A DNA stretch of 64,000 nucleotides, from NCBI RefSeq assembly GCF_050920415.1, contig NZ_CP169309.1, one strand, 5' to 3'. Every line of letters begins with the position of its first letter. Within the stretch, counting starts at the first letter, position 1. Under the pieces are notes generated by a model, which worked only from the letters and a program-made list of their open reading frames with translations, did not search any database and had not been told where the DNA came from. This DNA comes from Escherichia coli (lineage in GTDB: Bacteria; Pseudomonadota; Gammaproteobacteria; Enterobacterales; Enterobacteriaceae). A program made the translations under genes and the position numbers. Positions 3,901 to 50,891 of this stretch are shown one piece after another.

Positions 3901-4125
3901 ATGGCGGATGCAGCCTACGGTTCGGCACAGACCTGTAGGCATGATAAGACGCGTCAGCGTCGCATCAGGCATTGTGCGTCGACTGCCGGATGCGGTGTGA
4001 CGCCTTATCCGGCTTACGGTTCGGCACAGACTTGTAGGCATGATAAGACGCGTCAGCGTCGCATCAGGCATTGTGCGTCGACTGCCGGATGCGGTGTGAA
4101 CGCCTTATCCGGCTTACGAAGGGCA
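3901..4125. repeat. tandem BIME/REP cluster (two ~108-bp direct copies)
   Basis: gcctacggttcggcacagacctgtaggcatgataagacgcgtcagcgtcgcatcaggcattgtgcgtcgactgccggatgcggtgtgacgccttatccggcttacg repeated twice. Confidence 0.7.
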
Positions 4126-46353: not shown

Positions 46354-46574
46354 GCTGCACCTCCGAGATGCTTCATGTTTTTTCCGGAGCGAAAGGCTAT
46401 AAGCGGCATACTGACGCGGTAATTACGGCCCAGCGGTTCACAAATCACCTTCTGACATTCACGGTCAACCAGGCTAACACGTAGAACATGCCCTGCAGGC
46501 GTGGTGTACCACTGACCCGGTCGAGGACAACGGAAAGTCTGATTGGTAAACCGTTTGAAAATATTCCGGATCAT
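46350..46574 (-). CDS. hypothetical protein, ATGA-coupled to the O-like gene
   Basis: 74-aa ORF; overlaps neighbours by 4 nt on both sides. Confidence 0.4.
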   Translation of the reverse strand: MIRNIFKRFTNQTFRCPRPGQWYTTPAGHVLRVSLVDRECQKVICEPLGRNYRVSMPLIAFRSGKNMKHLGGAA

Positions 46575-47722
46575 TTGCGCCCCCTTACCTCGGAAGAGTT
46601 CAGCGACGAATGAATAAGACGGGCAAGAAATGCCGCATCGTTAATTCGGTCATACAGACTTACAGCCAGCGGTGATTCAGCTTTTTCCAGCATGGGATAA
46701 AGCTGCTGCAACCAGACCTGATGAATTGATGAAATGTAGGAATAGAGTACGCTGGCGTTATGTGCAACGTCGCTCGGTACAGCGGGCTTTGAAAGCTGTT
46801 TCTCCATCTGGTTAAAGGCATTGATGTATGCCTCTTTGAACTGGGCAGCACGTTTACCCGTGAAACCCATAGCAAGAAACGCAAAACCGTCGCGGGTTAT
46901 TTGATAGCAAGGTAGTTTGCGGCCTGTGCAATCGGTGTAATCACTCACCGAAAAATTGCGGGCAGTGAATGATGCGGAGCATTCAAGCGTGCGGATCTTT
47001 TTCAGTACATCGTCATGACGTTTGGAGAAGAAGTTGGCAACAGCCAGGGATGAAGTAACAGCCTGACCATCAACGATGGCAATTTCAGGTTGAGTGAGGG
47101 TTGGGATCGTAGCCATGATGGCAGCCTCTTTGGTGATTTTTAATAACTCACCACCAAGGCTTTCCACGACCTTATTGGTGGTGAGACGTACAGGGGTGGA
47201 AATACCGGTCACCAAAGAACCCGGCCCAACCGAAGTTGGCCCTGCACGCCCCACCATAATTTGGGCGTAATGCTGCTCATGACACAAAAAAACCGCAAGA
47301 GCGCGGTTGTGCGCTTTGGTGAATTCCGGGTTTCCACGCCCGGCACCCGCTTTATAAGGTGCCTGAACAGTGTAACGTCCCGGAATGGCAGAATCAATGT
47401 GCTGGTGGTCCTTCACACTCAACAAAATCACGCCTGAATTTCCACAAAGGGCTAAAGCACTCATGCGGGTAGTCTTTGCGAAGATAGATAACGCGCTGTG
47501 TTTCTGGCTCCCAACGAATAACATGAACATAAAGTCCTCTTCCGTCACGAAACCAGCGGTTAAGTTCCTGCACAACTCGCCCCCCACAGTCAGGTAAAGT
47601 TCTCTGTGGTTACTTACAGCCAGGAGATTTGGTAATCTGCATTCATGCCGTAACAACAGGTGTTCAGCGACGCTGACCACCAGCTGTTGCGACAAATGGT
47701 TATTTGCCGTTAAACTGTTCAT
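46571..47722 (-). CDS. Rha-family regulatory protein with ~200-aa N-terminal extension
   Basis: C-terminal ...IAIVDGQAVTSSLAVANFFSKRHDDVLKKIRTL... Rha domain; start ATG overlaps the stop of the CII-like gene (ATGA). Confidence 0.6.
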   Translation of the reverse strand: MNSLTANNHLSQQLVVSVAEHLLLRHECRLPNLLAVSNHRELYLTVGGELCRNLTAGFVTEEDFMFMLFVGSQKHSALSIFAKTTRMSALALCGNSGVILLSVKDHQHIDSAIPGRYTVQAPYKAGAGRGNPEFTKAHNRALAVFLCHEQHYAQIMVGRAGPTSVGPGSLVTGISTPVRLTTNKVVESLGGELLKITKEAAIMATIPTLTQPEIAIVDGQAVTSSLAVANFFSKRHDDVLKKIRTLECSASFTARNFSVSDYTDCTGRKLPCYQITRDGFAFLAMGFTGKRAAQFKEAYINAFNQMEKQLSKPAVPSDVAHNASVLYSYISSIHQVWLQQLYPMLEKAESPLAVSLYDRINDAAFLARLIHSSLNSSEVRGRK

Positions 47723-48604: not shown

Positions 48605-49279
48605 ATGAAAACAGTCCATGACATCCGGCGGTCTAACGCCAGAAAACTGAGAGATGGTGTTGGCGGGAATTCTTCCTTTGCCACCATGATTGATCGCGAA
48701 CCAACCCAGACCAGCAGGTTTATGGGAGATGGTGCTACTAAAAATATCGGTGACAGCATGGCACGGCACATCGAAAAATGTTTCGACCTGCCTGTCGGAT
48801 GGCTTGATCAAGAACACCAGACAACGAACATCACAAAAAAACCTGATGTTTCAATCACTAATAAACAAATAACGTTAGTCCCTGTCATATCATGGGTACA
48901 GGCCGGAGCATGGAAAGAAGTTGGCTATTCTGAGGTTGATTTGAGCACAACAGAAACATATCCCTGCCCTGTACCCTGTGGCGAAATGACTTATATATTG
49001 AGGGTGATTGGTGATTCAATGATTGATGAGTACCGTCCGGGGGACATGATTTTTGTCGATCCAGAAGTACCAGCCTGCCACGGCGATGACGTTATTGCAT
49101 TGATGCACGATACAGGTGAAACCACCTTCAAAAGGTTGATAGAAGACGGGACACAGCGTTATCTCAAAGCATTAAACCCCAACTGGCCTGAGCCTTACAT
49201 TAAGATAAACGGTAATTGCTCTATCATTGGTACAGTTATTTTCTCAGGAAAACCAAGAAGATACAAAATTAAAGCCTGA
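48605..49279 (+). CDS. cI: CI repressor (HTH plus S24 LexA-like peptidase domain)
   Basis: C-terminal GDSM...K autocleavage motifs (VIGDSMIDEYRPGDMIFVD...); 224 aa. Confidence 0.85.
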   Translation: MKTVHDIRRSNARKLRDGVGGNSSFATMIDREPTQTSRFMGDGATKNIGDSMARHIEKCFDLPVGWLDQEHQTTNITKKPDVSITNKQITLVPVISWVQAGAWKEVGYSEVDLSTTETYPCPVPCGEMTYILRVIGDSMIDEYRPGDMIFVDPEVPACHGDDVIALMHDTGETTFKRLIEDGTQRYLKALNPNWPEPYIKINGNCSIIGTVIFSGKPRRYKIKA

Positions 49280-49292
49280 TCAATGTCTATGA

Positions 49293-49315
49293 ACCTGCTT
49301 CGGCAGGTTTTTTTA
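49293..49315 (+). terminator. cI terminator
   Basis: acctgcttcggcaggt plus ttttttt. Confidence 0.55.
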
Positions 49316-49365
49316 TACTTGACAATGTACCATTAAGATACATAATGTACCTGCATAAGATATCG
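49316..49365 (+). promoter_or_regulatory. candidate pL/OL
   Basis: ttgaca-17-ataatg, overlapped by ATGTAccattaagaTACAT operator-like palindrome sharing half-sites with OR. Confidence 0.45.
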
Positions 49366-49474
49366 AACAGGCAGGACGCCCACGAAGTAGCCGTCCGGGG
49401 CATACGAAGACCGGAATGGTTCGTAAATAAAAAAGCGCCCAAGTGGACGCTTCACTTTTGAACTGGATTTATAA

Positions 49475-49684
49475 TCAATTATTTTCTTCATAAATGTTTT
49501 GTAATGTATTTATGAGATTTGGTATTTCTTTTATGGGAAAAGAATATATTGGACTTTCGATAATTTTATCAGATTCAAATGGTGGTTGTTTGCAGGACAG
49601 TTGAACTATAACTGAATTATGATCTTTAACTGGCACACAGTACCAACCACATACATCAAAAACAGGAGTATTTTGATTATCCAT
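49475..49684 (-). CDS. hypothetical small protein, low GC, rexAB-position inserted gene
   Basis: MDNQNTPVFDVCGWYCVPVKDHNSVIVQLSCKQPPFESDKIIESPIYSFPIKEIPNLINTLQNIYEENN with gagga RBS; ~30% GC island. Confidence 0.4.
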   Translation of the reverse strand: MDNQNTPVFDVCGWYCVPVKDHNSVIVQLSCKQPPFESDKIIESPIYSFPIKEIPNLINTLQNIYEENN

Positions 49685-49989
49685 TATGTCCTCGACAACT
49701 AAAAACACTGCGTACAAACCTCAAAAGCAGGGAGTTATTTATAAAATTTCATAAAGAATAATTACTGATAGCGACAATTCATTGTTCTTGAATTTTGAAA
49801 AATAGCAAGACAAAACAATGTAAACTTATTTAAGAAAAGTTCTTATTATGTAAACAAAACAACCAATTCGTTATATAGGAAAAACAAATAGTACGCAAGA
49901 AAATATTCAACAGGGGTATTACATTCAACCATAAGAGTAATCGTCTCTTTGGTAACTAATACCGAACATTTTATTGTAACACGTCGTAT

Positions 49990-50510
49990 GGCACATGCGT
50001 CGTTAGCGGTCTGGGGACGTTAAAGGGGACAATCCACTCCTTGCTCGGGCAAACAAACCAGGTAGCCGGAATGTGCAAGTCAATGATGATGCTGATAAGA
50101 CGCCTAACCAGCGTGGCGATCCGGTTTGACGCCTGGGAAGAGACCAGGGTGCAACGATGAGGGCATTTATGGAGCCGCGACAAAGTGTGGTGCCATAACT
50201 GGCTAAGTGCTCTCAGCGTTGTGGTAATCCGCGAAATGGCGCGGCGGTAAGTATGGCGGGGTTACTCTTTCCCCGTTGAGGACACCGGATTGTCAGGTTG
50301 ACCATACGCCTGAGTGACAACCCCACCACAACAGCCACTGCTTTGGCGGTACCAGCTTGTACCCTTGCTTCCGGCTGGTACCGTCCTTTTTACAAAACAG
50401 AGAAGAGCATCACCGGACGACGGGCTCATAACCCAATCCATCCGGGCGGCTGCCACCGCAGGTGTTCTTCTCTGTTTTGTGGAGAAACCAACCGGCCTTG
50501 CAGGGTCGAT
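49990..50510 (+). other. GC-rich structured noncoding leader of the early-left operon (no N gene)
   Basis: No ORF >=60 aa on + strand; hairpins ggtaccagc-16 nt-gctggtacc plus T tract (~50333-50372) and caaaacagagaaga...tcttctctgttttg (~50392-50480). Confidence 0.4.
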
Positions 50511-50528
50511 ATGATGAGGAGCAGCAAA

Positions 50529-50891
50529 ATGGCTAGCGAACGCAGTACTGATGTGCAGGCATTTATCGGGGAGCTGGACGGCGGCGTATTTGAAACCAAA
50601 ATCGGCGCAGTTCTCAGTGAAGTCGCTTCCGGTGTGATGAACACGAAAACCAAAGGTAAGGTCTCACTCAACCTGGAAATCGAACCATTTGATGAGAACC
50701 GTGTGAAAATCAAACACAAACTCTCATATGTTCGCCCGACTAACCGCGGGAAAATTTCCGAAGAAGACACCACCGAAACGCCGATGTATGTCAATCGCGG
50801 TGGTCGCCTGACTATTCTGCAGGAAGACCAGGGACAATTACTGACTCTTGCCGGTGAACCTGACGGAAAACTCCGCGCAGCAGGTCATTAA
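50529..50891 (+). CDS. YfdP-like prophage protein
   Basis: 120 aa MASERSTDVQAFIGELDGGVFETKIG...; aggag RBS; followed by yfdQ/yfdR homologues as in CPS-53. Confidence 0.55.
   Translation: MASERSTDVQAFIGELDGGVFETKIGAVLSEVASGVMNTKTKGKVSLNLEIEPFDENRVKIKHKLSYVRPTNRGKISEEDTTETPMYVNRGGRLTILQEDQGQLLTLAGEPDGKLRAAGH

Follow-up and report, generated by a model that had tools for sequence, protein, structure and literature searches.

The question raised by this locus is how early-left transcription is controlled in a lambdoid prophage in which no N gene is recognised between pL and the first early-left gene. In our window (the whole 64,000-nt stretch of Escherichia coli DNA that was analysed, from contig NZ_CP169309.1 of assembly GCF_050920415.1), a cI-like repressor gene with a Peptidase_S24 match (48605-49279) is followed by its terminator (49291-49310) and by a pL-like sigma-70 promoter on the + strand (49319-49346; TTGACA at 49319, a 16-nt spacer and CATAAT ending at 49346), which agrees with the consensus at 11 of 12 positions in a consensus scan; the order of these three elements in the preliminary description is thereby borne out. 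The identical promoter sequence is present in phage Ayreon, where it is annotated as a promoter. At the far end, a small hairpin (50493-50508, + strand) lies 5' of the yfdP-like first early-left gene (50529-50891, + strand; phrog_204 match, E = 1e-49), which RefSeq genomes annotate as YfdP and whose ATG at 50529 is preceded by the Shine-Dalgarno sequence GAGGAG (50516-50521, + strand). The region in between probably serves as the untranslated leader of the early-left (pL) operon in a lambdoid prophage that lacks N and belongs to the cdtI/Ayreon/mEp460/SfV type, and we think that the locus would most likely yield a DicF-like small RNA and control read-through into the early genes, rather than encode N.

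Lambda-type N/nut systems have an Arg-rich N-like protein as the first pL gene, whereas the window has no such ORF: the longest + strand ORF between 49350 and 50297 encodes 39 aa, and none of the + strand ORFs of that interval specifies an Arg-rich N-like peptide. Since none of the ORFs from pL to the yfdP-like gene has a match in Pfam or in a PHROG family of known function, the earlier statement that there is no N gene is correct as far as ORF scanning, Pfam and PHROG can tell. The accompanying statement that for about 1 kb no ORF reaches 60 aa holds for 49350-50297. From 50298 onward we observed two + strand ORFs, namely a 66-aa GTG ORF (50314-50514) and one that extends the yfdP frame to a TTG start; both lack a coding signature.

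The leader's conserved block (49974-50528) could still be a decayed or unrecognised protein-coding region. Some annotations place hypothetical proteins here on either strand (cdtI, mEp460, Ayreon, SfIV), the ORF at 50262-50456 (- strand) matches phrog_3651 (E = 5e-37), the ORF at 50314-50514 (+ strand) matches phrog_33599 (E = 1e-17), and stop-free stretches are common in the 3'-most part of the block (module C, below) of relatives. However, both PHROG families are of unknown function and were made from called ORFs, both ORFs lack a Pfam match, and stop codons are scarce in GC-rich sequence by composition alone, so that a test for stop-free frames was uninformative. Alignment with a degraded gene in relatives, which the preliminary description named as a finding that would speak against an RNA, is not what we see: variable columns are distributed evenly across the three codon positions, length differences among relatives are not multiples of three, entire cassettes are swapped, and substitutions in helices are compensatory. 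We therefore regard a coding origin as very improbable; the ORF calls in these phages, together with the PHROG families built on them, probably overlie RNA genes.

The block, which is GC-rich and non-coding, has strong structure on the + strand, and its conservation begins at 49974 rather than at the 49990 first given. Its GC content is 0.54-0.58 over 50025-50550, compared with 0.24-0.38 in the preceding AT-rich insert, and folding of the whole block beats every shuffle (z = -4.4 on the + strand, -3.15 on the - strand), with z = -5.9 for its 3' part (50325-50531). The GC-rich structured leader reported upstream of the yfdP-like gene is thus real, and the homologous leaders that were to be sought in other genomes do exist: the 557-nt block is about 98% conserved in cdtI/Ayreon/2H10/mEp460/Stx2c-type phages and in more than 1,100 E. 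coli genomes. Judged by sequence, it is a mosaic, parts of which are common to P1, phiV10-like phages and Qin. We consider it likely that the leader is a chain of independently conserved structured-RNA modules, with no gene remnant, which we term 0, A, B and C. Compensatory base changes occur in all four of these modules, none of which has codon periodicity in its variable columns, and many G-U pairs in modules B and C are compatible with a + strand RNA only. An Rfam search, proposed earlier as a check, gave no match in the leader, whether run over the whole window at gathering thresholds or over 49250-50650 at E up to 10, and none of the modules is in Rfam; a text search of the literature for the module sequences returned nothing relevant.

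The block starts about 620 nt after pL, and between the two lie roughly 615 nt (49353-49967), which consist of module 0 (49355-49428) and an AT-rich inserted moron on the - strand (49432-49967) with a terminator (49453-49432) and an 80-aa ORF (49475-49717) that has no PHROG or Pfam match. The moron sits within the pL leader, outside the RNA element, and splits pL and module 0 from the conserved block. Because this insert with its facing terminator intervenes, transcription from pL into the block is not assured in this window, and a consensus scan found no good internal promoter. Ayreon lacks both module 0 and the moron, and its block starts about 35 nt after the predicted pL start.

The best clue to function comes from the 3' half, whose organisation probably parallels that of the dicF region in the dicB operon of Qin. 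Module B (50217-50332, + strand) is a 4-way-junction RNA closed by a helix of GUUGUGGU (50217-50224) with ACCACAAC (50325-50332), and contains three hairpins and a possible pseudoknot, GUAUGG:CCAUAC. In its alignment 97.1% of cells are paired, compared with at most 57% when partners are slid, and eight pairs are compensatory, compared with 1.7 in shuffles (0 of 500 as high). Its homologues are a domain upstream of DicF in Qin and the 'dicF-like region' of P1, and in both Qin and Evi it lies 25 nt upstream of the Rfam DicF match. The corresponding place in the window is occupied by a small RNA candidate (about 50333-50391, + strand) with its own predicted terminator: a single-stranded 5' part, AGCCACUGCUUUGGCGG, is followed by a 12-bp stem (50345-50356 with 50374-50385, loop of 17 nt) and U5 (50387-50391), where a 9-bp hairpin at 50333-50372 had been described. 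This hairpin is present in both the minimum-free-energy and the centroid fold; a simple terminator scan does not call it, owing to the 17-nt loop. A hairpin with a T5 tract lies within 60-110 nt 3' of module B in 91 of 92 distinct relatives, and at least six different small-RNA types are found in that position. These counts, and the homology of the stretch from module B to the terminator with Qin dicF, support the processed small RNA and the attenuator that the preliminary description had listed as options.

Module C (50387-50486, + strand) follows, as a long stem enclosing a 3-way junction. The stem, put at 14 bp previously, has 20 bp (50392-50411 with 50461-50480) and can be extended to about 25 bp if the U tract pairs; the junction holds a CCGGA/UCCGG helix, an apical hairpin, GGGCUCAUAACCC (50422-50434), and a variable hairpin (50446-50459). 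Here 95.9% of cells are paired, compared with at most 54% when slid, and nine pairs and 26 cells are compensatory, compared with 4.7 and 7.0 in shuffles (0 of 500 as high). A hairpin with a T tract is found directly 5' of module C in 200 of 211 distinct contexts, among which the first genes on its 3' side vary.

DicF arises by Rho-independent termination and RNase E cleavage at its 5' end, and a 72-nt form is generated when RNase III cuts the full-length transcript (PMC5069750, PMC9438474). Phage genome databases yielded neither DicF nor DicB in an earlier study (PMC5069750). Like the Qin locus of E. coli K-12 (ydfABC-dicF-dicB), the window has a repressor-controlled early-left-type operon, a 4-way-junction domain just upstream (module B, more than 90% identical), a small RNA ending in a predicted Rho-independent terminator and, immediately 5' of the ribosome binding site of the gene that follows, a long stem with hairpins inside it; this stem, in module C, matches in position and shape the one that follows DicF in Qin. 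The genomic place of DicF, in an early-left-type operon just 3' of module B, is thus that of the window RNA, for whose 3' end a conserved hairpin with U5 and then a 20-25-bp stem are predicted. An alignment with Qin, Evi and CEC03102 reveals UUUGGCGGUA(U/C)CAG and CCG(C/U)CCUUUUUA as flanks common with DicF. The two loci differ in that Qin DicF has the 5' seed UUUCUGGUGACG, which in that alignment is absent from the window, whose small RNA has another hairpin; the long stem holds module C in the window and unrelated sequence in Qin; the downstream gene is yfdP-like rather than dicB; and upstream there is module A in place of the ydfABC genes. The Rfam DicF model (RF00039) detects DicF in both Qin and Evi; in the window it gives no match, either at the gathering threshold or with E relaxed to 10. 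The window therefore retains the DicF flanks around a different small-RNA body and, given the Rfam mismatch and the missing seed, we define this RNA as a positional relative and not as a demonstrated member of the DicF family. We also observed that the 3' end of the published 72-nt RNase III-made DicF would fall within the Qin stem.

From these comparisons we favour, with moderate confidence, a leader that combines a DicF-type small RNA, an attenuator and an RNase III site. By homology with dicF, loss of repressor would allow polymerase from pL to transcribe module 0, in this prophage the inserted antisense moron, and modules A and B, and part of transcription would end at the intrinsic terminator (50345-50391). 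The terminated RNA may then be trimmed at its 5' end, as RNase E does for DicF, to give a small RNA of about 50-60 nt of the Hfq-binding type, with a seed differing from that of DicF. In RNA that reads through, the U tract of the terminator and the next 20 nt would pair with 50461-50486 to form a long duplex. Long RNA duplexes are typical RNase III substrates, and module C is accordingly a candidate RNase III site in the modelled fold; a cut there would free a small-RNA precursor, comparable to the 72-nt DicF species, and would also form the 5' end of the yfdP-like mRNA, fixing its stability and translation. As the proposed terminator would stop part of transcription, it would at the same time attenuate early-left expression. 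The dense G-rich folds of modules A and B probably shield the ribosome-free RNA from Rho and RNase, and may guide processing. We stress that this model gives no account of the functions of modules 0, A and B or of the initiator-tRNA-like loop in module C.

A partial precedent is the leader of lambda N, which has nutL and an RNase III-sensitive stem before N, cleavage of the duplex tuning N translation. Like it, the window has an extended, structured pL leader in which a large duplex lies just 5' of the ribosome binding site of the first early-left gene; unlike it, there is no N gene, and inspection of the leader by eye recognised no boxB hairpin. A boxA-like UGCUCUU is seen only in the 3' arm of module C, in 12 of 19 relatives (UGUUCUU in the window), and it covaries with its pairing partner, so that what is conserved is the pairing and not a boxA sequence. 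Nus-dependent, rrn-like antitermination through boxA/boxC in this arm was set aside on these grounds, the match being in addition imperfect in the window.

The preliminary description also raised a put-like cis-antiterminator. The context is suggestive, in that this is an N-less lambdoid phage with structured RNA following pL, and a 9-mer common to putL and module A, CAUGCGUCG, was spotted by eye. We built a covariance model of put from 13 putL-type sequences only. Although this model recovers HK022 putL (103 bits), HK022 putR (41.9 bits) and the annotated HK639 putL-like RNA (79.7 bits), its best score in the window is 11.7 bits, at an unrelated place, and within the leader it reaches 7.2 bits; the put signature pattern (two stem-loops with GAACGGC, GUCGGG and AGGAUGA motifs) has no match in the window either. 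With its controls recovered and the leader empty, it is hardly credible that the leader holds a member of the HK022/HK639 put RNA family.

Positionally, the best put-like candidate would be an RNA outside the coordinates first described, module 0, which directly follows pL. It is a 74-nt RNA (49355-49428, + strand) that starts about 8 nt after the predicted pL start and folds into a closing helix, a hairpin with the 16-nt loop GACGCCCACGAAGUAG and a second hairpin with the loop GGCAUAYGAA. The 16-mer is identical in every collected copy of module 0, having itself served as the search key. Copies lie no more than about 10-30 nt from pL-type promoters, which represent many immunity types; 90.3% of cells are paired (at most 43% with slid partners), and 90 cells are compensatory, compared with 30.4 in shuffles (0 of 500 as high). 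A covariance model of module 0 scores 84.1 bits at the window copy, finds a single match per locus at 44 loci, with no pR-side copy, and has no match in HK022, P1, Qin, Ayreon or HK639. Like HK022/HK639 put, then, module 0 is a two-hairpin RNA, some 70 nt long, that lies at the very 5' end of the pL transcript in an N-less lambdoid phage and has terminators downstream. Unlike put, it has no detectable sequence or structure relation to that family; it is in single copy, where HK022 has putL and putR; and the 520-nt block is not at the transcript start in the window. Module 0 thus takes the place of putL while being unrelated to put.

These features could point to a new kind of RNA-based processive antitermination, with polymerase modified in cis in place of N or put, an idea that we find possible but doubtful. 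The candidate RNA for it would be module 0, or module A where it directly follows pL in phages without module 0, and read-through would then cover the moron terminator, the small-RNA terminator and later terminators. Besides the missing N-like ORF, the place, two hairpins and strong covariation of module 0 favour it, as do the intrinsic terminators that separate module 0 from the first early gene in the window, ST64B and many relatives, among them convergent moron terminators immediately 3' of module 0. A ribosome-free leader of more than 1 kb, moreover, would normally attract Rho. Set against this are the absence of kinship with put, the lone copy without a pR-side partner, and the cdtI-type phages, Ayreon and mEp460, which carry A, B, the small RNA and C without module 0; efficient antitermination would also oppose the production of a small RNA by termination. 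Antitermination and the small-RNA model can nevertheless coexist.

Module A (49974-50216, + strand) is a structured RNA with a long-range helix, in which GCACAUGCG..UUAGCGGUCUG pairs with CCAGGUAGCCGGAAUGUGC, and variable hairpins, whose sequences at alignment columns 141-155 and 173-189 are swapped with compensation. Its core (to about 50150) recurs in the P1/P7 ban operon, where it comes just after tRNA-Ile, and in phiV10-like phages, where it comes just before tRNA-Arg; these homologues have compensatory changes, and the P1 ban leader, like the window, also has a module B homologue and a terminator. Both loci, again like the window, belong to early or repressor-controlled transcripts. They differ from it in the order and partners of the modules, in having true tRNAs beside or in place of modules, and in lacking modules C and 0.

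An association with tRNAs recurs in the apical hairpin of module C. The 13-mer at 50422-50434, GGGCTCATAACCC, which occurs once in the window, matches exactly the anticodon stem-loop encoded by the 77-nt tRNA-Met gene, of which E. coli genomes have a median of 4 copies, and has the features of an initiator tRNA anticodon arm, three G-C pairs and the loop CUCAUAA. We therefore weighed a third reading, that the modules are autonomous structured RNAs with a trans function of their own, in tRNA biology or in countering host defences, the tip of module C mimicking the initiator-tRNA anticodon arm and binding or decoying a tRNA-fMet-recognising factor (a VapC-type anticodon nuclease, MetRS, or the 30S P site with IF3). 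Such functions have been proposed for other ornate phage RNAs beside tRNAs. Of 120 relatives sampled with no constraint on the 13-mer, 89 retain it, and 119 of 120 keep CUCAU when only the flanks are fixed; the GAC-hairpin-AAUCC motif recurs in Raoultella and Pantoea contexts on a different, compensated supporting helix; module A adjoins true tRNAs in P1 and phiV10-like phages and, in some relatives, has tRNA T-arm-like pieces nested inside it; and the GUUGUGG...CCACAAC frame of module B holds other inserts in relatives or a true tRNA-Arg. However, the equivalent of tRNA position 37, a purine in tRNAs, is U in 28 of the 120 relatives, so mimicry in the strict sense does not extend to all of them; ARAGORN detects neither a tRNA nor a tmRNA at 49974-50528 or in the corresponding modules of relatives; and the tRNA matches of Rfam in the window all lie outside the leader. 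GOLLD and ROOL are large ornate non-coding RNAs of phages and prophages, often beside or around tRNA genes and of unknown function. Although the leader resembles them as an ornate non-coding (pro)phage RNA associated with tRNAs, their Rfam models have no match at E up to 10, and it differs in host range, in being modular and in being tied to a small-RNA terminator and an mRNA leader. A trans function, the decoy role of module C and the proposed partners each seem to us quite unlikely.

Joining the latter two readings, one could imagine modules 0 and C as novel types of regulatory device. Module 0, at the 5' end of the pL transcript, would resemble put in action without being related to it and make polymerase resistant to terminators, and module C would be an initiator-tRNA mimic beside the ribosome binding site of the first gene, sensing or decoying tRNA-fMet-recognising factors. 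Both would belong to a series of four RNA families not described before (0, A, B and C), arranged around DicF-like small RNAs with interchangeable seeds in a sizeable group of N-less temperate Enterobacterales phages. This combination is unlikely in our estimation.

DicF has been regarded as an oddity of defective prophages, while the type of locus to which it belongs is in fact widespread in active temperate phages and in many enterobacterial genera. The upstream domain and downstream stem are constant, the small-RNA body varies between phages, and cassettes that include real tRNAs are exchanged inside a fixed helical frame. The production of host-directed small RNAs by these phages early after induction, the transcription of N-less lambdoid phages through a terminator-studded, ribosome-free leader of more than 1 kb, and the role of an initiator-tRNA anticodon arm inside an mRNA leader can now be put to experimental test.

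Some further candidates were rejected. Pairing of the module C loop with a start codon (CUCAU with AUGAG) suits some downstream genes and not others, and non-enterobacterial matches to an 18-mer of module C are unrelated coding sequence or chance. A preprint on the Pas small RNA deals with other loci. An anti-small RNA of the AgvB/AsxR type was ruled out, those RNAs being located in the pR' moron region and not in the early-left leader (PMC4104026). The consensus for GcvB targets, CACAACA, is found at 50326-50332, within the 3' strand of the helix that closes module B; the conservation of that helix, CACAACA included, is explained by pairing.

Downstream of the cI-like repressor gene of the prophage (48605-49279, + strand; Peptidase_S24 in Pfam, phrog_4 in PHROG) come a hairpin terminator (49291-49310, +) and then a near-consensus pL-like promoter, in which TTGACA at 49319 is separated by a 16-nt spacer from CATAAT ending at 49346 (+). 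The first early-left gene is a yfdP-like gene (+), whose ATG lies at 50529 with GAGGAG upstream of it. No N-like gene was found between this promoter and the yfdP-like gene, the longest + strand ORF 5' of 50298 being 39 aa. The final 557 nt of the leader (49974-50530), hereafter the block, have a GC content of 0.54-0.58, versus 0.24-0.38 immediately upstream, and their folding beats all shuffles (z = -4.4 for the + strand and -3.15 for the - strand; z = -5.9 for the 3' part by itself). From the GC contrast, the folding z scores and the ORF scan, we conclude that the GC-rich, structured leader without an N gene noted in the preliminary description is real; its hairpins are larger than stated there, with stems of 12 bp and 20-25 bp.

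Over 1,100 complete E. coli genomes carry the full-length block. Phages cdtI, Ayreon, 2H10 and the Stx2c phages match it at 97.8-98.5% identity, and phiSTEC1575-Stx2k and PhiR63_1 at 87.5-88% over the full length; mEp460 matches it as two pieces (98%). In Ayreon the block starts ~35 nt past the predicted pL start, and in the window ~615 nt are inserted between pL and the block. Sensitive searches divided the block into parts that have different relatives. Module A (49974-50216) also occurs in the P1/P7 ban operon, right after tRNA-Ile, and in phiV10-like phages, right before tRNA-Arg, and module B (50217-50332) in the K-12 Qin prophage, between ydfC and dicB. The 3' part (50333-50486) comprises a small-RNA candidate (~50333-50391) and module C (50387-50486); SfIV and SfII share it back to ~50343, and ST64B and a Klebsiella phage from ~50381, in all cases 5' of the first early-left gene.

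Among 18 module B sequences, 97.1% of cells are paired (at most 57% with slid partners) and 8 pairs are compensatory against 1.7 in shuffled alignments, with none of 500 shuffles as high. The corresponding figures for module C (19 sequences) are 95.9% (at most 54% slid) and 9 compensatory pairs with 26 compensatory cells (4.7 and 7.0 shuffled; 0/500), and those for module 0, an RNA directly 3' of pL (28 sequences), are 90.3% (at most 43% slid) and 90 compensatory cells (30.4 shuffled; 0/500). Module B folds into a four-way junction with a possible pseudoknot and module C into a three-way junction inside a 20-bp stem; in module A, a long-range helix is invariant and hairpins exchange sequence with compensation. 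G-U pairs are numerous on the + strand and would become A-C on the other; therefore, the RNA is the + strand transcript. Variable columns are evenly distributed across all three codon positions and indel lengths among relatives are not multiples of three, and we consider it very unlikely that the block is the remnant of a gene. Two ORFs over the RNA modules do match PHROG families, phrog_3651 (50262-50456, -) and phrog_33599 (50314-50514, +), but both families are of unknown function and neither ORF has Pfam support; the ORFs are probably calls overlying RNA, and the two families were probably built from such spurious calls.

In Qin, the module B homologue, which aligns at >90% identity, stops 25 nt 5' of the Rfam match to DicF, the small RNA of the dicB operon. 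A scan of viral contigs revealed a stable hairpin and T5 within a 60-110 nt interval 3' of module B in 91 of 92 distinct contexts, and the small-RNA bodies found there can be sorted into six or more types, including 45 that carry the DicF seed and 25 like that of the window. From the module B homology and the conserved trailing hairpin and T5, we infer that the first hairpin of the preliminary description is the terminator of a putative small RNA in the DicF position, with a seed different from that of DicF. Downstream of module B, the DicF 5' seed is missing from the window but UUUGGCGGUA(U/C)CAG is retained, and the hairpin that comes next differs from that of DicF but shares the ending CCG(C/U)CCUUUUUA. 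The annotated 'dicF-like region' of P1 provides a third variant of module B and terminator, with compensatory changes (GUAUGG/CCAUAC to GCAUGG/CCAUGC and UUGUCA/UGACAA to UUGCCA/UGGCAA). Far from that region, right after module A of the ban leader, P1 carries AUUUUCUGGUGAUGA (2685-2740), which resembles the DicF 5' seed UUUCUGGUGACG. The leader is probably a DicF-type locus; judged from sequence, this is the most likely of the readings. The small RNA would be produced by termination and processing, the terminator would attenuate read-through into the early genes, cleavage of the long stem would release the first early mRNA, and the modules farther upstream would lend stability and organisation to the long untranslated RNA.

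A stable hairpin and T tract lie directly 5' of module C in 200 of 211 distinct contexts, and the genes 3' of it vary, relatives having different first genes. Module C occurs in prophages of Escherichia, Shigella, Citrobacter, Enterobacter, Kosakonia, Mixta, Buttiauxella, Leclercia, Phytobacter, Pseudescherichia, Pseudocitrobacter and Erwinia. The 5' arm of its long stem begins with the U tract of the terminator; likewise, DicF in Qin is directly followed by a ~21-bp stem with hairpins inside it, which extends as far as the dicB ribosome binding site. The 72-nt form of DicF is made by RNase III (PMC5069750), and its 3' end would fall within the 5' arm of the Qin stem. By analogy with Qin, the long stem of the window is a possible target of RNase III.

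The apical hairpin of module C, GGGCUCAUAACCC (50422-50434, +), is 100% identical to the anticodon stem-loop of a tRNA-Met gene whose median copy number per E. coli genome is four. From their sequence, we take these genes to be the initiator genes. In a search fixing the flanks only, the 13-mer is kept in 89 of 120 relatives and CUCAU in 119, and 28 of the 120 have U where tRNAs have a purine; in Raoultella and Pantoea the motif recurs on a different, compensated helix. This initiator-tRNA-like tip is the strongest pointer to something new. The GUUGUGG...CCACAAC helix closing module B forms a constant frame for exchangeable cassettes. Module B itself fills it in the window, cdtI and Ayreon; mEp460 has a different insert there, and a P1-like element and a Klebsiella phage have another. 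The true tRNA-Arg of phiV10-like phages starts at the equivalent junction. Hairpins resembling a tRNA T-arm (GGUUCGAUUCC type) lie inside the 3' hairpin of module A in Klebsiella phage Kp4866-6 (1190-1275) and in the relative L316, where ARAGORN finds no tRNA at the site. That the modules have an autonomous tRNA-related function is an improbable reading, albeit one compatible with a DicF-type locus.

Comparison with ST64B revealed module 0, a conserved 74-nt two-hairpin RNA (49355-49428, +) that was missing from the leader elements first listed. It lies 3' of pL-type promoters of many immunity types, in ST64B, SfV, SfII, SfIV, ZF40 and Yersinia YeP phages and likewise in Pantoea, Citrobacter, Klebsiella and Aeromonas phages. 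Three versions of its closing helix occur, each fully compensated, and its model gives exactly one match per locus at 44 loci and none in HK022, P1, Qin, Ayreon, mEp460 or HK639; the element is absent from Rfam. The terminator of a convergent moron often follows immediately, the window included. The AT-rich moron of the window (49432-49967, -) separates modules 0 and A and encodes an 80-aa ORF (49475-49717, -) with no match in PHROG or Pfam; its own terminator faces pL, and many other phages have a similar facing terminator 3' of module 0. The pL leader of ST64B (943-1650) is ~700 nt of non-coding RNA ahead of sb37, ordered as module 0, an sRNA-like terminator unit, a GUUGUGG/CCACAAC-frame cassette, a second such unit and module C with the loop CUCAUUA. 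Module 0-like sequence is also present in two large Providencia phages, PSTCR5 and vB_PreS_PR1, the latter with two copies in an annotated repeat region (terminal repeats), distant from any lambdoid pL context.

A cis-antiterminator like put of HK022 had been one of the options suggested for the leader. We gathered putL/putR pairs by a signature scan and used putL-type sequences alone for a covariance model, whose structure follows the numbering of a cryo-EM paper (PMC9378689). With this model, HK022 putR scores 41.9 bits and the annotated HK639 putL-like RNA 79.7 bits, and there is no match in the window; we therefore reject membership of the put family and regard a put element in the leader as extremely unlikely. 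Module 0 is the best positional analogue of putL, but its sequence is unrelated and it lacks a copy on the pR side. A rather unlikely but more tenable alternative, which would be compatible with the DicF-type reading, is that a new element brings about RNA-based antitermination.

Elsewhere in the window, Rfam matches to C4 antisense RNA (83.6 bits) and isrK (67 bits) at 47174-47362 (-) lie within a 383-aa ORF (46571-47722) that relatives annotate as Rha/antirepressor. The true start of this protein is probably downstream of these matches, and the prophage seems to control its antirepressor by a C4 RNA of the P1/P7 type. An STnc100 sRNA (148.7 bits) and, close to it, phage-borne genes for tRNA-Arg(tct) and tRNA-Met(cat) occupy 37260-37458 and 38290-38543 (-); a degenerate tRNA-like stretch separates the two tRNA genes, and the anticodon arm of the tRNA-Met(cat) is ileX-like. 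Finally, naRNA4 repeats and three tandem tRNA-Leu(cag) genes (3938-4114, 59396-59478 and 59618-59940) indicate that host chromosome flanks the prophage on both sides.
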